Notes: generated by a model not told the origin, from the sequence alone. 64,000 bases of DNA from Bacilli bacterium (GCA_045113315.1 JBGUIX010000010.1:3248-67247); one strand, 5' to 3'; shown: positions 3,309 to 59,502, counted from the first letter of the stretch. Program-made: numbers and translations.

Positions 3309-4028
3309 TTAATATTTTTCTCTTATCTGCGACATTAATATGCCTGCAGCAACAGATGCATTTAATGAATTAACATGCCCATATTGAGGGATTTTTACTA
3401 TGTAATCAGAATTAGACAAAACTAATTTAGAAACACCTTGTCCTTCACTACCAATAATAAGAACAGTTTTAAAATCATAATCTAAGTCTTGATAATTAAT
3501 TGTTCCAGAACCATCGGTAGAAACAATCCAAAATCCTTCTTCTTTTAGTTTAGAGATGGTCTGATTCAAATTGCCAATAAGCGCAACAGGCACATAATTA
3601 ATCGCCCCTGCTGAAGTTTTGGCCACAGTAGCATTTAACGGAACTTGGTTATGTTTAGGAATTAATAAGCCAGTTGCTTTAAATACATCACAGCTTCTTA
3701 ATATAGCTCCTAAGTTATGTGGATCGTTAATTCCATCTAAAATAACGATAAGTGGTTTAGTTTCACTTTTTGCCAATTTTAAAATATGCTCCAAAGAAAC
3801 ATATTCGTATTCTTTAATAAATGCAATAATACCCTGATGAACTCCATCGCATAAAGAATCAAGCTCGTCATTGCTTTTAAAAGTAGTTTTCACGTTCTTT
3901 TCCTTAATGAGATCGAGTATTTCTTTATGTGAGAATTTAGGTGTTAAAAAGATTGACTTTACGCGGTTAGCATGTAAAGCTTCTTTAACTGAATTCCTCC
4001 CATAAATGACATTATTTTTCGTTTCCAT
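3309..4028 (-). CDS. rlmB: 23S rRNA 2'-O-methyltransferase, SpoU/TrmH family (RlmB-like)
   Basis: Motifs LDGINDPHNLGAILRS, LIIGSEGQGVS and IPQYGHVNSLNASVAAGI. The ATG at 4028 (METKNNVIYGRNSV) is preferred over the GTG at 4058. Confidence 0.8.
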   Translation of the reverse strand: METKNNVIYGRNSVKEALHANRVKSIFLTPKFSHKEILDLIKEKNVKTTFKSNDELDSLCDGVHQGIIAFIKEYEYVSLEHILKLAKSETKPLIVILDGINDPHNLGAILRSCDVFKATGLLIPKHNQVPLNATVAKTSAGAINYVPVALIGNLNQTISKLKEEGFWIVSTDGSGTINYQDLDYDFKTVLIIGSEGQGVSKLVLSNSDYIVKIPQYGHVNSLNASVAAGILMSQIREKY

Positions 4029-4084
4029 TATTAAACTACTTTCTTTATTTAAAATCACTATAATTTTTATCTATATAATAGAGA

Positions 4085-5422
4085 TTACAAAATTCCTTTT
4101 TGTATTAAAATTTGACGAATTTCATCGCTTTTTGCAAAGTCTTTTGTCTGTTTTGCGGCTAAATAAGCATTTGCTAATTCTTCGATTTCTTTATCAAATT
4201 TAACATATGAAATATTTAACCCTAAAACTGAAAACATATCAGTGAGAGTTTTAAACTGATTGTTAAGTGTTACAAAATCAATTTCTCTACTTCTTAAAGT
4301 TAGATTACTTTCTTTAATTAATTTATAAACTTCGGTTAATGCGTTCGCGGTATTAAGATCATCCGCTAAAGAGGTGATAAATTGATCAATATAAACAGGT
4401 TTACCTTCATCTAAATTAATATGATTAATCTGTAAGGTGTAAGCCATTTGTTTATAAGCCACTTGCATCTTATTAACTTCTTGCATCGCCGCGTTCACTG
4501 TTTCATCAGTAAAATTCACAGGTTGACGATAATGGGCGTTCAAAATCACTAATCTAGTGACCGCTCCGCCATATTTTTCAATCATGTCTTTGGCGTAGAC
4601 AACATTGCCTAATGATTTGGACATCTTTTCATTACCAAAATTGATGAATGCATTATGCATCCAATAATTAGCAATTTTATTATGATGCATCGCTTCAGCT
4701 TGAGCGATTTCATTTTCATGATGCGGGAATTTTAAATCATATCCACCGCCATGAATATCGATAAAATGATTTGGGAAGATAGAATCAATCATCACTGTAC
4801 ATTCAGTATGCCAGCCTGGACGACCTTTTCCCCATGGGGAATCCCATCTCACACCAGTATCGGTTTTCTTCCATAAAGCGAAATCTAAAGGAGATTCTTT
4901 TTTAGAATTTTCTTCGATTCTAGCGCCCACAATTAAATCTTCGACGTTAATTCCGGATAAAGTTCCATAATCTTTGATTTTAGGAACACGGAAATAAACA
5001 TCTCCATCTACAACATAAGCGGCATCAAGTTTAACTAAAGCATCAATATATTCGATAATTTTATCAATATATTCAGTCACTTTTGGTGTGATGTTTGGTT
5101 TTTCACTACCAATCGCGTTTGTGACCTTTAAAAATTCTTTTATATAAAATTCTGTTAATTCCTTTTCACTTTTTCCTTCTTTTTGAGCTTCCTTGATGAT
5201 TTTATCATCGACATCGGTAAAATTACTGACGTAAGTAACTTTGTAGCCTACGTAGCGTAAAAAGCGTCTTAAAGTATCGAAGACCACAACTGGTCTCATA
5301 TTTCCAATATGAGGATAGTTATAAACAGTTGGTCCACAAACATACATGGACACTTCACCATCTTTAATTGGTTTAAATTCTTCAAGTTTATTGGTTAAGG
5401 AATTGTAGAATACTATTTTCAT
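4085..5422 (-). CDS. cysS: Cysteine--tRNA ligase
   Basis: Class I motifs HIGN (PHIGNMRP) and KMSKS (EKMSKSLGN). ATG at 5422; the tracked start at 5428 is TTG. Confidence 0.95.
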   Translation of the reverse strand: MKIVFYNSLTNKLEEFKPIKDGEVSMYVCGPTVYNYPHIGNMRPVVVFDTLRRFLRYVGYKVTYVSNFTDVDDKIIKEAQKEGKSEKELTEFYIKEFLKVTNAIGSEKPNITPKVTEYIDKIIEYIDALVKLDAAYVVDGDVYFRVPKIKDYGTLSGINVEDLIVGARIEENSKKESPLDFALWKKTDTGVRWDSPWGKGRPGWHTECTVMIDSIFPNHFIDIHGGGYDLKFPHHENEIAQAEAMHHNKIANYWMHNAFINFGNEKMSKSLGNVVYAKDMIEKYGGAVTRLVILNAHYRQPVNFTDETVNAAMQEVNKMQVAYKQMAYTLQINHINLDEGKPVYIDQFITSLADDLNTANALTEVYKLIKESNLTLRSREIDFVTLNNQFKTLTDMFSVLGLNISYVKFDKEIEELANAYLAAKQTKDFAKSDEIRQILIQKGIL

Positions 5423-5433
5423 AAGCAAGTAGA

Positions 5434-5454
5434 GGGGGCGATTTTACCGCCCCC
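5434..5454 (-). terminator. GC-only hairpin between hydA and cysS (possible weak terminator or attenuator)
   Basis: GGGGGCG-7 nt loop-CGCCCCC, a perfect 7-bp stem. On the minus-strand RNA it is followed by UCUACUUGCUU and then the cysS AUG, so the U-tract is poor. Confidence 0.35.
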
Positions 5455-5460
5455 ATAAAA

Positions 5461-7212
5461 TTAATCAGGATATTTTTCTCTCTTAGAATTGTAGTGAGTG
5501 TGTAATAATTCTTCACTTAATTCTGATAGAGGTTCACCAAGGAATTCCTTATATAATTTTTGAATATCCTTGTTATTGTGAGATTGTCTAATAACTTGTC
5601 TTTCATCTTCGCTATATAAGACACTCGCACGTTTTTGACGATAAGTATCTAAGATATCATCATCTTCATTTGGTAATAAGGATGGTTGAACATATGGTTG
5701 ACCACCACCGTTAATACATCCACCTGGGCAGCCCATAATTTCGATAAAGGCATATGGAGATTTACCTTCTTTAACTTCTTGGACTAATTTAGAAGCGTTC
5801 TTCATACCAGAAGCGATCGCTACTTTAATACCAAGTTCTTTAATTTCGGCTTCTCTAACACCTTCTAAACCACGGACATTTTCAAATACGATTTTATCGT
5901 ATTCTTTACCAGTTAAGACGAAGTAAGCAGTTCTTAAAGCCGCTTCCATAACACCACCGGTAACACCGAAGATAACACCAGCGCCAGAATAATCACCTAA
6001 TAAGTCAGCATCAAATTCTTCTTCTGGTAATTTTTGCCAGTTAATACCGGAACGTTTGATCATCTTAGCTAATTCACGTGTGGTTAAAACAGCGTCGACA
6101 TCGTGATCCATTTCTGGACGTTGTCTTTCATATTTTTTCGCTGTACAAGGCATAATGGAAACCACAAAAATATCTTTAGGATCTAAATCATGTTTCTTTG
6201 CGAAATAAGATTTAATAATCGCACCCATCATCATATGTGGTGATTTACATGTTGAGATATGTGGGATGATTTCTGGATAGAAATATTCCATATAGTTAAT
6301 CCAACCTGGTGAACAGGATGTGATTTGTGGTAATACACCTTTATTCTTAATTCTATGAATTAATTCATAGCCTTCTTCCATGATGGTTAAGTCCGCACCG
6401 AAGTTTGTGTCAAAGACACGATAGAAACCTAAACGGTGTAAAGCGGCAACCATTTTACCAGTACCAGGAGTGCCAATCTTTTCGCCGAATTCTTCAGCGA
6501 TAGCAGCTCTGACAGCAGGAGCGGTTTGAACAATAACTTTCTTACCACTTCTAAAGGCTTCATCAACCTTTTCAATTTCACTATGCTCCATTAACGCACC
6601 GACAGGACAGACGTTAACGCATTGTCCACATTGCATACATGGGACATTAGCAAAGCTTCTATTTTGGACAGGACCAACAATGGTCTTAAAGCCACGATTT
6701 TCAAAACCTAAGATAGAAATACCTTGGGCTTCTTTACATCTTTCAATACATCTACCGCATAAAATACATTTTGCAGTATTTCTAATGATGCCAGGAGCGA
6801 CTTCGTCATAAGTCTTTTCTGTGGTTTGACCAACATATTTACCTTCTCTAGCACCGACCATTTCAGCGACATGTAATAATTCGCAGTGTCCATTTTTTGG
6901 ACATTGTAAGCAGTTTTTCTCGTGATTAGAGAGGATTAATTCCACACTAGCTCTACGAGCTTCTACTGCTTTTGGTGAAGAAATAGAGATTTCCATTCCT
7001 TCATTAACTGGATAAACGCATGAGGCGCATAATCCACGAGCGCCTTTGACTTCCACTAAACAAACACGGCAGCTTGCTCTAGAGCATTTACCATGATTGA
7101 AAGCACATAAGGAAGGGATTTCATAGCCGCATTTACGGCATGCTTCTAAGACGGTCAAAGAATTATCAACTTGATAATCGCGACCTTCGATTTTGATATT
7201 TACTAAAGCCAT
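5461..7212 (-). CDS. hydA: [FeFe] hydrogenase catalytic subunit (HydA/HndD type)
   Basis: N-terminal 2Fe-2S and multiple 4Fe-4S Cys clusters. H-cluster motifs MPCTAKKYE and EIMGCPGGCINGGGQP are present; the first motif reads TSCSPGW. A C-terminal small-subunit-like tail is present. RBS GGAGG. Confidence 0.9.
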   Translation of the reverse strand: MALVNIKIEGRDYQVDNSLTVLEACRKCGYEIPSLCAFNHGKCSRASCRVCLVEVKGARGLCASCVYPVNEGMEISISSPKAVEARRASVELILSNHEKNCLQCPKNGHCELLHVAEMVGAREGKYVGQTTEKTYDEVAPGIIRNTAKCILCGRCIERCKEAQGISILGFENRGFKTIVGPVQNRSFANVPCMQCGQCVNVCPVGALMEHSEIEKVDEAFRSGKKVIVQTAPAVRAAIAEEFGEKIGTPGTGKMVAALHRLGFYRVFDTNFGADLTIMEEGYELIHRIKNKGVLPQITSCSPGWINYMEYFYPEIIPHISTCKSPHMMMGAIIKSYFAKKHDLDPKDIFVVSIMPCTAKKYERQRPEMDHDVDAVLTTRELAKMIKRSGINWQKLPEEEFDADLLGDYSGAGVIFGVTGGVMEAALRTAYFVLTGKEYDKIVFENVRGLEGVREAEIKELGIKVAIASGMKNASKLVQEVKEGKSPYAFIEIMGCPGGCINGGGQPYVQPSLLPNEDDDILDTYRQKRASVLYSEDERQVIRQSHNNKDIQKLYKEFLGEPLSELSEELLHTHYNSKREKYPD

Positions 7213-7224
7213 AATCTTTCCTCC

Positions 7225-9114
7225 TTATCTTTTAACAATCGCGCCGAATTTACATCCAGCCATACAGCTACCACATTTCACACACTTATTTGGATCGATG
7301 TGATGAACAAATTTATTTGGAATTTTAGCTGGTTGATCAGTAGGTGTAATACAACCAACTGGGCAGTTTCTTGCACATAATGTACAACCCATACATTTTT
7401 CTGGAAGAATATAGTATTCCATCATGTTTTTGCAAACATGAGCAGGACATTTATGATCCCTAACATGAGCTTCATATTCTTCTGGGAAAGCTTTCATCGT
7501 GGAAAGAATTGGGTTAGTTGCGGTTTGGCCTAAAGCACATAAGGAGTTAGATTGAATGAATTTCGCTAATTCTTTCAAATCTTCTAAATCCTTTTCTTCA
7601 CCTTTACCATCGCAGATCTTGGTTAAGATATCTAAACATCTTCTGGTACCAATACGACATGGAGAGCATTTACCACATGATTCATCGCAGATAAATGTCA
7701 TATAGAATTTAGCGACGTCCACCATACAGTTATCTTCATCCATAACAATGGCACCACCAGAGCCCATCATACTTCCAGCGGCTATTAAGCTACCAAAGTC
7801 GATTGGTGTATCTAAGTCTTTTTCGGTTAAGCATCCACCAGATGGACCGCCTGTTTGAATGGCTTTGAATTTCTTACCACCAGGGATACCGCCACCGATA
7901 TCATAGATTAATTGTCTTAAGGTAGTTCCCATAGGAACTTCAACTAAGCCAACGTTATTCACTTTGCCACCTAAAGCAAAGACTTTTGTACCTTTAGTGT
8001 CGTCTGTACCAATACTAGCAAATTTCTCCCATCCTTCTCTTAAGATGAATGGAACACAGGCTAAAGTTTCGACGTTATTAACGACAGATGGATGTCCCCA
8101 TAAACCTTTCACCGCTGGGAATGGAGGACGAGGACGTGGCATACCACGTTTACCTTCAATGGAATTGATTAAGGCAGTTTCTTCACCACATACGAAGGCG
8201 CCTGCACCTAATCTAATATGACAGCGGAATGAGAAGTCTGTACCTAAGATGTGATCACCTAAAATACCAATTTCTTCCAATTCTTTAATCGCTTTTGCTA
8301 AACGTTTAACAGCGATTGGATATTCGGCTCTGACGTAGAAATAACCATCATTGGCGCCAATCGCATAACCAGCGATCATCATACCTTCGATAACCGCACA
8401 TGGATTTCCTTCAATAATAGAACGATCCATGAAGGCTCCTGGGTCACCTTCGTCACCATTACAAATCATGTATTTTGGTTCGTCAGTGTCAGGAACAAAT
8501 GACCACTTTCTTCCTGTTGGGAAGCCAGCGCCACCTCTACCTCTTAATCCAGATTTTAAAACTTCATCGATGACTTCTTTTCTAGTCATATGTAAGGCTC
8601 TATTTAAGCCTTGGAAAGCACCGTTACCAATTGCTTCATCAATATCTTCTGGATTGATTTCACCATTACCATGTAAAGCGATATCTCTTCTTTGTAATTT
8701 ATAGAAGTTAATATCGTGTTGTTTTTGCACATGTTCTTTAGTTTGAGGATCAATAAATAATAATCTGGTGACAATTTCGTTATTTAAGATATCTTTCTCA
8801 AAGATTTCTTCCGCATCAGATGGTTTCACCTTTGTGTACAAGGTTTCTTCTGGGAAGATTTTGACGAATGGGCCTTGAGAACAGAAACCGAAACATCCAA
8901 CGATGTTAGCGGTCACTTTATCTTCTAAACCATTCTTTTTAATTAATTCTTGGAATTTTTCTAAGGTCACTTGGCTGTCCGCGGATAAACAACCGGTACC
9001 ACCACAGACGACGATCGCTTTATGACCGGGTTCACAGTGGAATTTCTTTTGTAAACAACTACCGCAGTGGTTAAATCTCTCTTGGAGTTCTTTTTCATTA
9101 TTAATACGATTCAT
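7225..9114 (-). CDS. hydB: Hydrogenase flavoprotein subunit, NuoF-like (HydB/HndC)
   Basis: N-terminal thioredoxin-like 2Fe-2S part. NuoF core with GAGAFVCGEETALINSIEG and GRGGAGFPTG. CGKCSPCR cluster, and a C-terminal 2x[4Fe-4S] ferredoxin domain (CMGCTLCARNCP, CVKCGSCMAGC). Confidence 0.9.
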   Translation of the reverse strand: MNRINNEKELQERFNHCGSCLQKKFHCEPGHKAIVVCGGTGCLSADSQVTLEKFQELIKKNGLEDKVTANIVGCFGFCSQGPFVKIFPEETLYTKVKPSDAEEIFEKDILNNEIVTRLLFIDPQTKEHVQKQHDINFYKLQRRDIALHGNGEINPEDIDEAIGNGAFQGLNRALHMTRKEVIDEVLKSGLRGRGGAGFPTGRKWSFVPDTDEPKYMICNGDEGDPGAFMDRSIIEGNPCAVIEGMMIAGYAIGANDGYFYVRAEYPIAVKRLAKAIKELEEIGILGDHILGTDFSFRCHIRLGAGAFVCGEETALINSIEGKRGMPRPRPPFPAVKGLWGHPSVVNNVETLACVPFILREGWEKFASIGTDDTKGTKVFALGGKVNNVGLVEVPMGTTLRQLIYDIGGGIPGGKKFKAIQTGGPSGGCLTEKDLDTPIDFGSLIAAGSMMGSGGAIVMDEDNCMVDVAKFYMTFICDESCGKCSPCRIGTRRCLDILTKICDGKGEEKDLEDLKELAKFIQSNSLCALGQTATNPILSTMKAFPEEYEAHVRDHKCPAHVCKNMMEYYILPEKCMGCTLCARNCPVGCITPTDQPAKIPNKFVHHIDPNKCVKCGSCMAGCKFGAIVKR

Positions 9115-10944: not shown

Positions 10945-11643
10945 TTAAAACTTCTTTCGAACGATTAATTGTGGTTTTCCAATGGTGACTCTGACATCAT
11001 CAGGGACTGACTCAGTTAAAAAGACGTTACTACCGATGGTGACACGGTTTCCGATCACAACATCACCGCCTAAAATTGAAACACCAGCATAAATGGTAAC
11101 ATCATCTTTAATTGTAGGATGTCTTTTTACTCCCGCTAAACGATGCCCTTTACCTAATGATAAAGCACCTAAAGTAACGCATTGATAGATTTTGGCTCTT
11201 TTGCCAATAACTGTGGTTTCACCGATAACAATACCTGTCGCGTGATCAATAAAGAAAGGAGAATCTATTTGTGCGCCTGGGTGAATATCAACACCTGTTA
11301 AGATATGAGCTTCTTCCGCAATAATTCTTGCGGTTAGCTTTTCTCCTAATAAATATAATTCATGAGCGACACGATAATATCTAATAGCTTTATAGCCTGG
11401 ATAAGCTAAAACAACTTCATCCTTGCTATCCGCGGCTGGATCGCTATCTACAAAGAAATCTAAATCCTGTTCAAGTTGTTTTCTTACCACAGGTAATTTG
11501 CTTAAAAAGACTTCTGCTTCTTTCTCATCATTTTTAACATATTCCAAGAATAAGCCTTTAATAATACTTAAGTTATCAGAATAACCTAACACATAGTTCT
11601 CTACGGATTCATAAAATTCACTAATTTCTTTACTGCAAATCAT
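10945..11643 (-). CDS. cysE: Serine O-acetyltransferase
   Basis: Hexapeptide-repeat C-terminal half with DIHPGAQIDSPFFIDHATGIVIGETTVIG. GGAGG RBS. Confidence 0.85.
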   Translation of the reverse strand: MICSKEISEFYESVENYVLGYSDNLSIIKGLFLEYVKNDEKEAEVFLSKLPVVRKQLEQDLDFFVDSDPAADSKDEVVLAYPGYKAIRYYRVAHELYLLGEKLTARIIAEEAHILTGVDIHPGAQIDSPFFIDHATGIVIGETTVIGKRAKIYQCVTLGALSLGKGHRLAGVKRHPTIKDDVTIYAGVSILGGDVVIGNRVTIGSNVFLTESVPDDVRVTIGKPQLIVRKKF

Positions 11644-12060
11644 ATGTTAGCCTCCAAGTGGTATTGATTTTATCATTAAAAATTATATTTGAATATTTTA
11701 ACGATATAAAAATATTTATTAAGCAAAGTAAGAAATTTAAAAAATCATTTTCCGACAATTGTATAAAACGTTACCTAATTTCTTAAAAAATAGTGTTATT
11801 TAAGCAATCTTATATAAATAAATTTATATATAGTAAAATCATAATCATAAATTAGGTTAATAATTTTATTTTTCTTGTATATATCACTACTTTTTTGTGT
11901 TTTTTCGACACTGTATAAACTTCAAATTGTTTTGCTTGTTTACCTATAAGTAAATTGATAAAGTTTATACACATTCCATTTAAGAGGCATCTTAGAAGGA
12001 AATTTCTTAAAAACACTTTAGAAAGGTGTTTTTCTATCACCATAAAGGAGTGAGCTTTTT

Positions 12061-14430
12061 ATGCTAAAAATTTTAAAAAGAAGCGGAAACGTCGAACCGT
12101 TTGACATCAAAAAAATCGAAAGAGCGATAGAAAAAGCATTCTTCGCTGAACACAAAGTTTATACACCAGACGTCATTGAAATGTTAGCACTTAGAACAGT
12201 GGCTATTTTTAATGGCAAAGCAAAAAACGAAACTATCGGAGTGGAAGATGTTCAAGACGCTGTTGAAGTAGCCTTGATCCAAGCCGGTTTTGTGGATGTA
12301 GCAAAAAGTTACATCATCTATCGTAAACAACATCAAAATTTAAGAGAACTTAAAACCACAAACTTAGATTATAAGAATGTTGTTAATAACTACTTAAAAA
12401 TTAATGACTGGAGAGTTAAGGAAAACTCCACTGTTACCTATTCTGTGGGTGGCTTAATTCTTTCTAACTCTGGTGCAGTCACCGCTAACTACTGGTTAAG
12501 TGAAGTATATGATAAGGAAATCGCGGACGCGCATAGAAATGCTGATATCCACATCCATGACTTATCCATGTTAACTGGTTATTGTGCAGGTTGGTCATTA
12601 AAACAATTAATCCAAGAAGGTTTAGGTGGTGTCGTTGGAAAGATTACATCCGCTCCAGCTGCTCACTTATCCACTTTATGTAATCAAATGGTTAACTTCT
12701 TAGGTATCATGCAAAATGAATGGGCTGGTGCACAAGCCTTCTCATCCTTTGATACCTATCTAGCCCCATTTGTGAAAGTTGATAACTTAACATATAAACA
12801 AGTTAAACAATGTATCCAATCCTTCATCTATGGTGTTAATACACCATCCAGATGGGGTACTCAAGCGCCATTTACCAATATCACCCTTGACTGGGTTGTT
12901 CCAAACGATATGGCGGAACTTAACTGTATCGTCGGTGGTAAAGAAATGCCATTTAAATATAAAGATTGTGTCGAAGAAATGGCGATGGTTAACAAAGCCT
13001 TCATTGAAATCATGATCGAAGGTGACGCTAACGGAAGAGGATTCCAATATCCTATCCCAACCTATTCCATTACCAAGACATTTGACTGGTCAGAAACTGA
13101 AAATAATAAATTATTATTCGAAATGACCGCCAAATACGGTACACCATATTTCTCTAACTACATCAATTCCGATATGGAACCAAGTGATGTGAGAAGTATG
13201 TGCTGCCGTTTAAGATTAGACTTAAGAGAATTAAGAAAGAAATCAGGTGGTTTCTTCGGTTCTGGCGAATCTACCGGTTCTATCGGTGTTGTCACTATCA
13301 ATATGCCAAGAATCGCTTATTTAGCCACTGATGAAGCTGATTTCTATCAAAGATTAGATCATATTATGGATATCTCTGCTCGTTCACTTAAAGTGAAGAG
13401 AAATACCGTCACTGCTTTATTAGAAGCAGGTTTATATCCATATACTAAGAGATATTTAGGTACATTTAATAACCACTTCTCCACCATCGGTTTAGTGGGT
13501 ATGAATGAAGCTTGTTTAAATGCTCGTTGGTTAAAGAAAGATTTAACACATAAAGAATCCATTCAATTTACTAAAGATGTGCTCAATCACATGAGAAGTA
13601 AATTATCTGATTACCAAGAATTATATGGTGATTTATATAACTTAGAAGCTACCCCTGCGGAATCCACAGCTTACCGTTTAGCTAAACACGATAAAGCTAA
13701 ATTCCCAGATATCATTACCGCTAATGAGGATGGTATGACTCCATATTATACAAATTCATCTCACTTACCAGTCGGTTATACCGAAGATGTATTTAAAGCT
13801 TTAGACATCCAAGATGGTTTACAAACTTTATATACATCAGGAACAGTTTTCCACTGCTTCTTAGGTCAAAAATTACCTTCTTGGAAATCTTGTATGAATT
13901 TCGTTAGAAAGATCGCGGAAAACTATCATATTCCTTATTACACAATGTCGCCAACATACTCTGTATGTAAAGAACATGGTTATTTAGTTGGTGAACAATT
14001 CGTTTGTCCACACTGTGGTCAAAAAGCGGAAGTTTATTCCCGTATTACCGGTTACTATCGTCCAATTCAAAACTGGAACGATGGTAAAACCGCTGAATAC
14101 CATAACCGTAAAGAATATGAACCAGAGAATTCTCATTTAACACATACTTTAATTAATGAAGAATGTGCGCAAGAAGAAAAGACAAGTGACGAATCATTAA
14201 ATGAAATCTTATTATTCGCCACAAAAACTTGTCCAAACTGTAAGATGGCCAAAATGCTTTTAGATAAAGCTGGTATCCACTACACAGTTATCGATGCGGA
14301 AGATAATAAAGAAAAGACTTTAAAATATAAAGTCAACAAAGCACCAACCCTTATCGTTCCTAACGAAAATGGCTACGATGTCTTTGAAAACGCATCCAAC
14401 ATCAAAGGATATATAGAAAGTATCAACTAA
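12061..14430 (+). CDS. nrdD: Anaerobic (class III) ribonucleoside-triphosphate reductase with a C-terminally fused thioredoxin-fold CxxC domain
   Basis: N-terminal ATP-cone-like segment, Zn-ribbon CPHCG and glycyl-radical motif SRITGYYRP. These are followed by an acidic linker and a 76-aa module (14200-14427) with CPNC at 14230-14241. RBS AAGGAG. Confidence 0.9.
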   Translation: MLKILKRSGNVEPFDIKKIERAIEKAFFAEHKVYTPDVIEMLALRTVAIFNGKAKNETIGVEDVQDAVEVALIQAGFVDVAKSYIIYRKQHQNLRELKTTNLDYKNVVNNYLKINDWRVKENSTVTYSVGGLILSNSGAVTANYWLSEVYDKEIADAHRNADIHIHDLSMLTGYCAGWSLKQLIQEGLGGVVGKITSAPAAHLSTLCNQMVNFLGIMQNEWAGAQAFSSFDTYLAPFVKVDNLTYKQVKQCIQSFIYGVNTPSRWGTQAPFTNITLDWVVPNDMAELNCIVGGKEMPFKYKDCVEEMAMVNKAFIEIMIEGDANGRGFQYPIPTYSITKTFDWSETENNKLLFEMTAKYGTPYFSNYINSDMEPSDVRSMCCRLRLDLRELRKKSGGFFGSGESTGSIGVVTINMPRIAYLATDEADFYQRLDHIMDISARSLKVKRNTVTALLEAGLYPYTKRYLGTFNNHFSTIGLVGMNEACLNARWLKKDLTHKESIQFTKDVLNHMRSKLSDYQELYGDLYNLEATPAESTAYRLAKHDKAKFPDIITANEDGMTPYYTNSSHLPVGYTEDVFKALDIQDGLQTLYTSGTVFHCFLGQKLPSWKSCMNFVRKIAENYHIPYYTMSPTYSVCKEHGYLVGEQFVCPHCGQKAEVYSRITGYYRPIQNWNDGKTAEYHNRKEYEPENSHLTHTLINEECAQEEKTSDESLNEILLFATKTCPNCKMAKMLLDKAGIHYTVIDAEDNKEKTLKYKVNKAPTLIVPNENGYDVFENASNIKGYIESIN

Positions 14431-14431
14431 T

Positions 14432-15352
14432 ATGTACGATGTCATCATTATCGGTGGCGGTCCTGCTGGAATGGCAGTCGCTTTAAATACACTTAGAAAT
14501 GGACGCACCTGTCTCCTTTTAGAAAAGGAGAATTTTGGTGGTCAAATGGCGACTTCTCCAAAACTAGAGAACATTCCAGGCATCAAAGCGATATCCGGAA
14601 TCGAATATAGCGATAAGATGTTTGAACAGATCACCGATATGGGGGCGGAGTTCGAACTTGAAGAAGTAGAATCTATCACAAAAGAAGAAGAAAAATTCAT
14701 CGTTAAAACTAATTACAACACCTATGAATCTTGGACTGTTGTTTTAGCAAATGGATGTCACCATCGTAAGATGAACTTACCACATGAAGATGATTTAGTG
14801 GGTAAAGGTGTCTCTTATTGTGCAGTTTGTGATGGAGCTTTCTATAAAGGTCAAACCACAAACATCATCGGAGATGCTAATACAGCGTTACAATATGCTT
14901 TATTACTTAGTAATTATTGCCCCACTGTTAATGTCTTTGCTTTATTTGATCATCTATTTGGGGATCAAATCTTAATTCAAAGAATTAATGATAATCCAAA
15001 TATCCATGTTAGATATAATGTTTCTTTACAAGAATTCATCGGTGAAGAAGAATTAAAAGCTTTACGCTTCTTTGATAAATCAAATAACGAAGAATTTACC
15101 GTTGAAACAAACAATGTCTTTGTCGCTATTGGCCAAATCCCTTGTAACGAGCCATTTAAAGATTTAGTGGAATTAGATAATAAAGGATTTGTCATCACTA
15201 ATGACAATATGGAAACTTCTTGTCCAGGTGTCTACGCCGTAGGCGATACAAGAAAAAAAGACATCCGCCAAGTAGTAACTGCTTTGGGTGATGCCAGTGT
15301 GGCTAGTGTCTATATCAATAGATATTTACAATCATTAAATAGAAATGATTAA
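14432..15352 (+). CDS. Thioredoxin-reductase-like flavoprotein lacking the NADPH-binding motifs
   Basis: FAD motif IIIGGGPAG and redox CAVCDG (14819-14830). The NADPH site reads IIGDANTA instead of GGGNSA, and the HRR motif is replaced (VFALFDHLF). The gene starts 1 nt after the nrdD stop. Confidence 0.8.
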   Translation: MYDVIIIGGGPAGMAVALNTLRNGRTCLLLEKENFGGQMATSPKLENIPGIKAISGIEYSDKMFEQITDMGAEFELEEVESITKEEEKFIVKTNYNTYESWTVVLANGCHHRKMNLPHEDDLVGKGVSYCAVCDGAFYKGQTTNIIGDANTALQYALLLSNYCPTVNVFALFDHLFGDQILIQRINDNPNIHVRYNVSLQEFIGEEELKALRFFDKSNNEEFTVETNNVFVAIGQIPCNEPFKDLVELDNKGFVITNDNMETSCPGVYAVGDTRKKDIRQVVTALGDASVASVYINRYLQSLNRND

Positions 15353-15373
15353 AGGATTGCTTCGGCAATTCTT

Positions 15374-15625
15374 TTATTTATATAAATTCTTTAATCTTTC
15401 GTTTGGTTCTGGAGGATTGTCCATTAGCTCTAAAAACAAATCTCTCTCACTATTATCTAAAATAATGGATTGATTTCTCATATCGTTTCTAACTTGTTTC
15501 ATCATTGCATCATAAATATAGGCTGGTAATGTTTGATGCTTTAGATCCGCGGCCATATTTAAAAACTCTTTCTCATTATCAGAAAGATAAATATTTATTT
15601 CATTTGTCTTTTTAAAAATAGCCAT
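15374..15625 (-). CDS. DUF1778 / TacA-like ribbon-helix-helix protein (antitoxin-like, no cognate toxin gene nearby)
   Basis: 83 aa. The pattern (LSDNEKEFLNMAADLKHQTLPAYIYDAMM ... IILDNSERDLFLELMDNPPEPNERLKNL) resembles TacA-family antitoxins. RBS GGAGAA. Confidence 0.5.
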   Translation of the reverse strand: MAIFKKTNEINIYLSDNEKEFLNMAADLKHQTLPAYIYDAMMKQVRNDMRNQSIILDNSERDLFLELMDNPPEPNERLKNLYK

Positions 15626-15675
15626 GGAATTTCTCCATAGCTATTATAACATTTATATCGATAATTTCACGCTTA

Positions 15676-16368
15676 TTAGTAGCCTCTTAAATTAACTGAG
15701 TGAATAGTTTCGCTTAATATATCTTTGAAATGTTCGGCTTTTTCTTCGCTCACTTCGTGAAAACCATGAGCGATGCAACTTTCACGATCCACATATTTTT
15801 GAAGATACATTCTTTTAGCCCCTTTAATTAATTGGGCCATCTTTTTAATATCTTCTTCATTATGGAATTCATCAATGATTGTGGTTCTAAATTCATATTC
15901 ATATGGTGAATTAATTAAAAAATTAATTGTTTCTTTAATCTTATCCATATAAACATTTTTAGCACCTGCGGTTAAAGGATATTTTTTCTCGCTATTTTTA
16001 ATATCCATCGCTACATAATCAATTAATTTATTTTCAAATAAATATTTCACTAATTCTGGGTTAGTGCCATTAGTGTCTAATTTCACTAAATAACCTAATT
16101 CTTTAATCTGTTTTATCTTATCCACTAAATCGGGCATTAAAGTGGGTTCGCCACCACTCACCACAACTGCATCGATTAAACCTTTTCTTTGTCTTAAATA
16201 GGCTAAAATATCATCAAAAGGAATAAAAGTATCCGCCTCTAAGACTGTTTGTCCGTTATGACAAAAAGGACATCTAAAATTGCAAGCTTTAGAAAATAAG
16301 ACAACAGCAACTTTGTCTTCATAATCTAATAATGAAAATTTATCTATCCCTACAAAGTCCATGCACAT
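15676..16368 (-). CDS. nrdG: Anaerobic RNR activating enzyme (radical SAM)
   Basis: CNFRCPFCHN (CxxxCxxC) and GGEPTL. 230 aa; the alternative ATG two codons downstream is equally possible. Confidence 0.85.
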   Translation of the reverse strand: MCMDFVGIDKFSLLDYEDKVAVVLFSKACNFRCPFCHNGQTVLEADTFIPFDDILAYLRQRKGLIDAVVVSGGEPTLMPDLVDKIKQIKELGYLVKLDTNGTNPELVKYLFENKLIDYVAMDIKNSEKKYPLTAGAKNVYMDKIKETINFLINSPYEYEFRTTIIDEFHNEEDIKKMAQLIKGAKRMYLQKYVDRESCIAHGFHEVSEEKAEHFKDILSETIHSVNLRGY

Positions 16369-16431
16369 ATTTTAGCATATTATCGATATTTTCATATTTT
16401 ATATTAATAAAATTGGTATTATAATTTCATC

Positions 16432-16911
16432 ATGATTAAAAGTAATATTTCCTGGGATGAATATTTTATGGGCATCGCTGTGCTCTCCAGCATGCGTAGT
16501 AAGGATCCCAACACCAAAGTGGGAGCGTGTATCGTGGATGAAAATCATAAAGTGGTTTCCATCGGTTATAACGGCATGCCATGTGGATGCGATGAAAGCC
16601 AATTATCTTGGAATAAAGGTACAGGTTTAGATAGCAAATATCTTTATGTTTGCCACGCGGAATTTAACGCTATTTTAAATACCAGAAATGGTACTTCTGC
16701 GTTAAAAGGTTGCACCGTTTATGTGACATTATTCCCATGCAATGAATGCACTAAAGCCATTATTCAAACCGGAATTAAAGAAGTTGTTTATATTTCTAAT
16801 AAATATGAAACCACGACTGAAACTCAAGCTTCGTTAAGAATGTTAACACTTGCTGGAGTCAAGATTCGTCATTACGAAGGAAGAATTCCTGAAATTAATT
16901 ATGACCGTTAA
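16432..16911 (+). CDS. comEB: dCMP deaminase
   Basis: Zn-deaminase motifs HAEFNAI and PCNECTKAI. 159 aa. Confidence 0.85.
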   Translation: MIKSNISWDEYFMGIAVLSSMRSKDPNTKVGACIVDENHKVVSIGYNGMPCGCDESQLSWNKGTGLDSKYLYVCHAEFNAILNTRNGTSALKGCTVYVTLFPCNECTKAIIQTGIKEVVYISNKYETTTETQASLRMLTLAGVKIRHYEGRIPEINYDR

Positions 16912-59364: not shown

Positions 59365-59502
59365 TTAATCTATCTTTTCAAATAAGTCTTTTCCGACTCC
59401 GCAGACTGGACAGGTGAAGTCTTCTGGTAACTCTTCTTCTTCGGTTTCATAAACATAACCACAGACTGTGCATTTGAAATGATGCAATTTTTTCTCATCC
59501 AT
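59365..59502 (-). CDS. Rubredoxin
   Basis: 45 aa from ATG 59502 with CTVCGY ... CPVCG. RBS AGGAGG. The longer tracked ORF overlaps the upstream gene and is not needed. Confidence 0.85.

Follow-up and report, generated by a model that had tools for sequence, protein, structure and literature searches.

The open reading frame (ORF) at 14432-15352 on the plus strand of a 64,000-nucleotide (nt) stretch of DNA from Bacilli bacterium (GCA_045113315.1 JBGUIX010000010.1:3248-67247; the whole stretch is referred to as the window) encodes P0001, a 306-residue (aa) homologue of the low-Mr thioredoxin reductases (TrxRs), and lies directly behind nrdD, the gene of a class III ribonucleotide reductase (RNR) that carries a redoxin domain at its C-terminus. 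We tentatively propose, with a confidence somewhat short of even, that P0001 would serve as the dedicated flavoprotein disulfide reductase of this fused CPNC redoxin and would take its electrons from a donor other than NADPH. The main argument for the NrdD-redoxin as acceptor is the conserved pairing of the two genes. With regard to the donor, NADPH seems very unlikely because P0001 has lost all four basic residues of the 2'-phosphate site and has gained an Asp. The pocket itself, as judged from the alignments, appears to have been rebuilt under selection and not to have decayed, because the clade-specific residues are strongly conserved and are confined to it.

The former NADPH pocket of P0001

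P0001 has the features by which low-Mr TrxRs are recognised, namely the two-Rossmann TrxR fold, a GxGxxG FAD motif and a CxxC in the second domain. It matches Pyr_redox_2 (PF07992) with 136 bits and the TrxB equivalog model TIGR01292 with 299 bits, the latter under the model cut-off of 343. The AlphaFold2 (AF2) model of the protein (pLDDT 94.4; last helix at residues 281-301) superimposes on the L. lactis TrxR 5MH4 in the FR conformation with a TM-score of 0.95 and a root-mean-square deviation of 1.3 Å; for the TrxR-Trx complex of E. coli (1F6M) the TM-score is 0.94. In residues 123-138 (VGKG…CAVCDGAFY), VGKG stands ahead of the redox-active motif and AFY after it; VGKG/GKG and F/Y are the thioredoxin-docking residues of low-Mr TrxRs (PMC5627308), and the alignment indicates that P0001 retains GKG and F/Y. 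The NADPH site of this family consists of GGGxxAxE and HRRxxxR (PMC5627308, PMC10880999), neither of which is present in P0001, where the loop reads GDANTALQ and the second site is made up of A170, L171, F172 and F176. The elements of the gene are as follows.

14432..15352, plus strand: TrxR-like flavoprotein disulfide reductase with a 'type A' pocket (PF07992, TIGR01292, AF2 model, TM-score)
14453..14470, plus strand: FAD-binding GGGPAG, residues 8-13; G8 and G10 invariant in alignment A2
14819..14836, plus strand: redox-active CAVCDG, residues 130-135; C130 and C133 invariant in 80 sequences
14864..14896, plus strand: altered pyrophosphate loop IIGDANTALQY, residues 145-155; D148 and Y155 clade-specific
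14927..14968, plus strand: former 2'-phosphate site VNVFALFDHLFGDQ, residues 166-179; A170/L171/F172/F176 in place of H/R/R/R

For the comparison of the pocket, the canonical TrxB encoded on contig C11 of this genome and 69 sequences of the NADPH-dependent (NTR) type served as reference, and the canonical residues (E. coli numbering for the basic ones) correspond to P0001 as follows.

Second Gly of GGG: D148
Third Gly of GGG: A149
H175: A170
R176: L171
R177: F172
R181: F176

Across the 69 NTR-type sequences, the basic residues at these four positions, which hold the 2'-phosphate, show 90-100% conservation. D148 occurs in 30/30 type A rows against 0/69 NTR rows, and Y155 in 97% of type A against 0% of NTR. 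When every alignment column was tested for residues conserved in type A yet rare in NTRs, only D148, Y155, L171 and F176 passed, with T/A170 and F172 registering as lost NTR residues. All six of these type-A-specific positions (D148, Y155, T/A170, L171, F172, F176) lie within the former NADPH pocket, which has turned from cationic to aromatic and hydrophobic (L, F, F, Y) with one Asp, and outside the pocket the same screen finds P0001 to resemble an ordinary TrxR. In addition, the signatures IGD[AG]N[TS]A and LF[DN]xxF[AG]D are kept in all 120 of the 120 nearest database homologues (61-100% identity).

An earlier note on this DNA had described GGGPAG and CAVCDG as kept, IIGDANTA (residues 145-152) at 14864-14887 as the second dinucleotide site and the HRRxxxR arginines as replaced, and the alignment bears out each of these readings. 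Its wider claim that the NADPH-binding motifs are lost holds for the 2'-phosphate arginines but not for the glycine loop, since the loop of many clade members, GDGN[TS]A, still has the form of a GxGxxA fingerprint. At the level of the aligned sequences, the glycine-rich loop has changed but has not vanished, whereas the arginine cluster is unambiguously lost. That P0001 might still use NADPH despite its substitutions would be in keeping with its unchanged overall fold, but we regard this as highly improbable given the exchange of four such conserved basic residues for A/L/F/F and the added Asp.

The gene pair with nrdD and a proposed electron path

The start codon of the reductase gene lies 1 nt past the nrdD stop (junction TAA-t-ATG), in the following setting.

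12061..14430, plus strand: nrdD, class III RNR, 789 aa (Pfam PF03477, PF13597, PF00462; NF006126)
14206..14427, plus strand: C-terminal Grx/Trx-fold domain of NrdD, residues 716-789 (PF00462, PF13192)
15351..15374, plus strand: hairpin and T-run directly after the reductase stop (from the sequence)
15676..16368, minus strand: nrdG-like radical-SAM activase, 230 aa, convergent (PF04055, PF13353)

NrdD, which matches NCBIfam NF006126 with 1118 bits, is laid out as an ATP-cone (residues 3-92), an NRDD core (residues 121-686) and the C-terminal redoxin domain. The latter, of ~75 aa with active site TCPNCK and cis-Pro motif KAPTL, appears to be of the small YruB/Cp9/NrdH-like type; it scores 33 bits against PF00462, over the cut-off, and matches the YruB-family model TIGR02196 weakly (26 bits against a cut-off of 88.6). 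Across 22 aligned redoxin domains, C23, P24, C26 and P61 do not vary. The catalytic set of NrdD comprises a beta-A Cys, aligned to C125 of T. maritima NrdD (4COI), an MCCR finger loop, a Glu equivalent to T. maritima E495 and the glycyl-radical motif RITGY. A double-Cys finger loop, an active-site Glu and a beta-A Cys are the marks of redoxin-dependent class III RNRs (PMC9669993), and NrdD has all three of these features of disulfide-based reduction.

We propose that electrons would pass within the reductase from FAD to the CAVC dithiol, from there to the tethered CPNC redoxin, and from the redoxin to the Cys pair in the active site of NrdD formed by the beta-A Cys and the MCCR finger loop, with the Glu as the putative proton donor. 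Such a path would regenerate the only RNR found in the organism: no class I or class II enzyme was found in the genome assembly, which is 94% complete, a figure that applies to all genome-wide absences given here. Redoxins of the YruB/Cp9/NrdH type are reduced by TrxR-type enzymes (PMC3720550, PMC6187632). When the reductase was co-folded with the redoxin domain, the score was 0.32 against 0.00 for the best control, above a mark reached by 58/80 solved complexes and 2/110 mismatched pairs and within the range (0.60 or lower) in which 7 of the 80 solved complexes and both mismatched pairs passed; the runs share at least 50% of contacts and the partner has a pLDDT of at least 75. As such, the predicted complex lends weak support to the pairing, and its pass may reflect likeness to the solved TrxR-Trx complex 1F6M.

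The hairpin directly behind the reductase gene is the probable end of the operon, shared with the convergent gene. Orthologues of nrdG adjoin the gene pair in most related loci, and beyond nrdG the window encodes, likewise on the minus strand, a dCMP deaminase and then FolD. Between the reductase gene and nrdG lies an 83-aa TacA-like (PF08681) gene of the antitoxin type (15374-15625, minus strand), which has no adjacent toxin gene and is missing at the equivalent position in most related loci. Upstream of nrdD, no Rex or NrdR operator was found within 4 mismatches, save one weak Rex-like site at 11687-11704, and an Rfam scan of 11500-16500 gave no match.

A constant module with three pocket states

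The reductase gene was found directly downstream of the NrdD-redoxin fusion in 30/30 loci checked, across several families. Among 41 related genomes, this arrangement is seen for each of the 10 relatives that reach 42% identity or more, with nrdG usually adjacent; the matches at 38% identity or less are canonical HRR-type TrxBs at other sites. Of 300 genomes sampled evenly from the class, 40 have a close homologue, concentrated in five families, and NrdD with the CPNC domain stands immediately upstream in all of the 20 loci taken from this sample. Three metagenomic representatives share the NrdD-redoxin/reductase arrangement, and the redoxin domain is present in 1827 NrdD clusters of the protein collection. 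The link to the NrdD-redoxin fusion that had been proposed from the window stands with the 1-nt junction, the conservation of the pair and the finding of NrdD as sole RNR.

Named genome contigs were scanned with a profile of the sister group (type B), and three pocket states were found among the TrxRs linked to NrdD-redoxin.

Canonical pocket, GGGxxA + HRRDxFR: 5 NrdD-redoxin-linked loci
Type B pocket, GGGNSA + QNLxxLT[GAC]E: at least 10 NrdD-redoxin-linked loci, mostly Clostridia metagenome-assembled genomes (MAGs)
Type A pocket, GD[AG]N[TS]A + LFDxxF, as in P0001: 3 loci in the contig survey

Because the three pocket states occur in one operon context, the comparison suggests that the NrdD-redoxin module is constant and that the donor pocket is its variable part. 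Fully canonical HRRDxFRGE TrxRs stand directly beside NrdD-redoxin in Clostridia-type MAGs (L098, L100, L111, L132 and L139), and these loci presumably represent an NADPH-driven version of the module.

In a FastTree phylogeny from all columns, type A forms one clade (SH-like 98) that lies beside a clade of type B and NTR-type sequences. When the motif columns were left out, the one clade to gain support in a quick IQ-TREE analysis was the core of the NrdD-linked type A sequences (20 rows; SH-aLRT 90, not starred), and a single origin of all type A sequences is thus not claimed here.

The possibility that P0001 is not specific to NrdD, and instead acts as a second general TrxR, as an oxidative-stress enzyme that happens to share the operon or as the reductase of another partner, appears unlikely to us. 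Such a role would agree with the generic nature of the thioredoxin-docking residues, with the location of some divergent members apart from NrdD, and with a genome of the same family, 90% complete, in which no other TrxR homologue was detected. However, the close homologues are fixed downstream of NrdD-redoxin in every locus checked, and the genome has a canonical TrxB of its own on contig C11, next to rapZ/whiA (GGGNAA, HRRNEFR, CALCDG), as well as a WCGPC thioredoxin; P0001 is therefore an extra and, by this token, specialised copy. In the small genome just mentioned (G020, 0.9 Mb), the type A gene is the sole TrxR homologue detected, the next match reaching 37 bits, and in some lineages of this kind the type A enzyme may also serve general thioredoxin reduction.

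Some members of the family occur on phage-like sequences. In three metagenome contigs of 55-147 kb (L041-L043), a gene at 5001-5915 of the locus encodes a divergent type A TrxR-like protein (GDGNTA, LFDKFF), surrounded by phage-like genes for a PDDEXK nuclease, a RecD2-type helicase, ClpP, PhoH and a NUMOD3 endonuclease, with no NrdD within 5 kb. The unverified 57-kb scaffold MT835493.1, filed as 'Bacteriophage sp.' (L061), carries nrdG, nrdD-redoxin and a type A reductase of 49% identity at 3599-7846, which may be a phage-borne copy of the module or a bacterial contig filed as phage. In Bacillus phage G (NC_023719.1; L062), gp344 at 4989-5936 is a canonical NADPH-type TrxR (GGGDSA, HRREKFR), for which RefSeq gives the product name 'ribonucleotide reductase large subunit'.

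Relationship to other thioredoxin reductases

Kinship with the ferredoxin-dependent FFTR or with DTR/DDOR, as suggested in the earlier note, finds no support in the comparison with enzymes of known structure. The distance to FFTR, DTR and TRi rests on phmmer scores to PDB chains and on fold ranks, the trees containing no FFTR sequence, and the scores are listed below.

B. cereus NTR (7AAW): 220 bits
S. aureus NTR (4GCM): 203 bits
Gloeobacter DTR (5J60): 133 bits
Clostridial FFTR (6GNA): 112 bits
D. vulgaris TRi (5NII): 76 bits
DDOR (5N0J): 63 bits

The best 150 matches from 1.84 billion representatives reach at least 197 bits each, and no FFTR structure is among the 50 best Foldseek matches of the AF2 model, the fold being that of NTR. 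In cyanobacterial FFTR a C-terminal Trp tail is required for ferredoxin binding (PMC8154056). No such tail is present in P0001, which has no Trp in its C-terminal region and aligns with residues 1-302 to residues 9-311 of 7AAW. The signature TQ/NGK, which takes the place of HRRD in TRi, is also absent, P0001 reading ALFD. The phmmer scores, the fold ranks and the missing Trp tail speak against descent of P0001 from the FFTR or DTR lineage.

The electron donor

We infer that NADH is the single most likely donor, slightly favoured over the main alternative of flavodoxin or ferredoxin. The change of the pocket would then amount to a re-specified nucleotide site. Our weighting of the donors is as follows.

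NADH: the leading candidate, at just under even confidence
Flavodoxin or ferredoxin: possible but doubtful
Another ligand: improbable
NADPH: very improbable

Several observations point to NADH. The pocket is strictly conserved, the GxGxxA fingerprint is frequent in the clade, and the fold is unchanged, with neither insertions nor tails; in addition, the pocket states form a graded series in one operon context, from the HRR type over type B to type A. Further points that bear on NADH are the finding of no stand-alone ferredoxin ORF in the genome, the net charge of P0001 of -17 and the precedent of Cp34/Cp9 (PMC3720550).

A number of points weigh against our proposed reading of P0001. Ala149 takes the place of the central Gly in the fingerprint and Asp148 stands beside the pyrophosphate loop, and either residue could hinder the binding of a dinucleotide. 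In addition, strand beta-2 ends without an acidic residue (A170), whereas AhpF and other NADH-specific relatives have a Glu there. In D. vulgaris TRi and T. acidophilum TR, a normal fold with a changed pocket goes together with no use of NAD(P)H (PMC5627308). On the side of the acceptor, absence of the finger-loop Met marks the NrdD subclades that use thioredoxin only (PMC9669993); this Met is present in NrdD (MCCR), so that formate chemistry would be compatible with its sequence. A search of the genome for PFL as a formate source found none. Lastly, the deeper nodes of the quick IQ-TREE analysis lack support and leave five divergent pairs unplaced, and in a few cases a divergent type A gene, on a phage-like or short contig, has no NrdD within a few kb.

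The main rival reading, which we consider possible but doubtful, keeps the NrdD-fused redoxin as acceptor and takes as donor a flavodoxin or ferredoxin reduced by PFOR, so that P0001 would be FFTR-like in function, not in descent. The loss of the NADPH arginines and the Ala at the central fingerprint position in P0001 would fit such a donor, and ferredoxin-driven flavin TrxRs are known (PMC8154056, PMC10880999). A low-potential carrier must operate in the organism, because PFOR (1180 aa), RnfC and HydA/HydB are encoded in the genome (contigs C5, C7 and C10). No stand-alone 2x[4Fe-4S] ferredoxin ORF turned up when the genome was scanned in six frames for CxxCxxCxxxC, and the carrier may be a flavodoxin; a Flavodoxin_4 protein of 173 aa is encoded at G000:C6:4255-4776. 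This gene is followed, within G000:C6:4255-6574 (locus L051, 246-2565), by that of a 598-aa fusion protein with flavodiiron-type ODP, flavodoxin, flavin-reductase and rubredoxin-like domains. Besides the missing ferredoxin ORF and the missing kinship and Trp tail described above, a protein donor is opposed by the lack of any conserved donor or carrier gene near the operon across 10 loci. The acidity of the enzyme (-17; pocket domain -9) also speaks against it, docking of ferredoxin to FFTR being electrostatic (PMC8154056), as does the strict conservation of the pocket, in contrast to the degenerate loop of TRi (PMC5627308). Should this rival nevertheless be true, the synthesis of deoxynucleoside triphosphates (dNTPs) would be tied to the low-potential pool.

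The route from ferredoxin or rubredoxin that had been suggested for this gene fares accordingly: the 45-aa rubredoxin gene at 59365-59502 is real, but the genome scan and the charge of P0001 tell against ferredoxin. Rubredoxin was rejected as donor on redox potential, as by textbook values it lies at about 0 to -50 mV and the flavin/disulfide of TrxR at about -250 mV, which makes it too oxidising.

Another small molecule, such as a reduced flavin in free form or a cofactor not yet recognised, might bind in the rebuilt aromatic pocket and act as donor. The high conservation of the six clade-specific residues and the aromatic and hydrophobic character of the pocket with its one Asp would suit such a ligand, but nothing positive points to any particular one, and the Rossmann fingerprint kept in many members points to a dinucleotide; we therefore consider this unlikely.

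It might also be, although we think it rather doubtful, that the pocket formed by D148, Y155, L171, F172 and F176 binds no pyridine nucleotide at all, in which case P0001 would belong to a new, independently evolved class of flavin TrxR wired exclusively to class III RNR, with flavodoxin, ferredoxin or an unrecognised donor. If so, many gut Bacilli and Clostridia would make their DNA precursors with electrons from the low-potential pool. The term 'pyridine-nucleotide-independent', under which the earlier note had placed the protein, does not follow from its sequence, which indicates independence of NADPH only.

Novelty and significance

Our literature search found no paper on a reductase associated with NrdD-redoxin or on its pocket. 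A RefSeq survey has reported one gene fusion grx::nrdD, that of Lachnospiraceae bacterium TWA4 (PMC6187632), and the double-cysteine MCCR loop occurs in most class III RNRs (PMC9669993). New here are the three pocket states in one operon context, the confinement of the clade-specific changes to six pocket positions, the finding of no ferredoxin gene in the genome and the acidity of the enzyme, and together these shift the reading of P0001 from 'ferredoxin-dependent, FFTR-like' towards a putative reductase dedicated to NrdD, with its donor site re-specified.

The NrdD-redoxin and its private reductase would offer a self-contained and testable reductant chain for an essential enzyme. The reductase is itself probably essential in these small-genome anaerobes, because NrdD is the sole RNR found. 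In addition, the three versions of the pocket represent a natural series for a change of coenzyme specificity in the TrxR fold.

Comparison with known systems

By sequence and fold, P0001 is closest to the NADPH-dependent low-Mr TrxB enzymes (7AAW, 4GCM, 5MH4, 1F6M), with which it shares an equal length without insertions or deletions, the FAD motif, the CxxC of the second domain and the thioredoxin-docking residues. It differs from them by A/L/F/F for H/R/R/R and GDA for GGG, and by the location of its gene in the NrdD-redoxin operon and not at a housekeeping trxB locus. The clostridial FFTR 6GNA and the cyanobacterial FFTR/DTR 5J60 and 6XTF are likewise TrxR homologues without NADPH motifs, but they are distant in sequence (112 and 133 bits), the FFTR chains have ~288 aa, and the Trp tail of DTR is not found in P0001. 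D. vulgaris TRi (5NII; PMC5627308) resembles P0001 as a second TrxR in an anaerobe beside a canonical TR1, and it cannot use NAD(P)H. TRi is set apart by its TQ/NGK signature, its degenerate pyrophosphate loop, the lack of a link to NrdD and a score of 76 bits to P0001.

With regard to the acceptor, a thioredoxin-dependent class III RNR of the Neisseria bacilliformis / Thermotoga maritima type was reportedly described by Wei et al. in 2014. According to later accounts (PMC9669993, PMC4493059), this type shares with our NrdD the double-Cys finger loop, the active-site Glu and, on our reading, a supply of electrons from a flavoprotein reductase by way of a thiol redoxin. The present system differs in that the redoxin is fused covalently to NrdD, that a dedicated operon-partner reductase with a non-NADPH pocket is encoded, and that the finger loop is MCCR, with the Met kept, and not SCCR.

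In C. pasteurianum, Cp34 is an NADH-dependent TrxR-like protein that reduces the YruB-type redoxin Cp9 (PMC3720550). The Cp34/Cp9/Cp20 system, as published, resembles the one proposed here in that a TrxR-family flavoprotein is devoted to a small Grx-like redoxin encoded beside it and uses a donor other than NADPH. The redoxin there is free-standing and its target is a peroxiredoxin, whereas here the redoxin is part of the RNR that it would serve.

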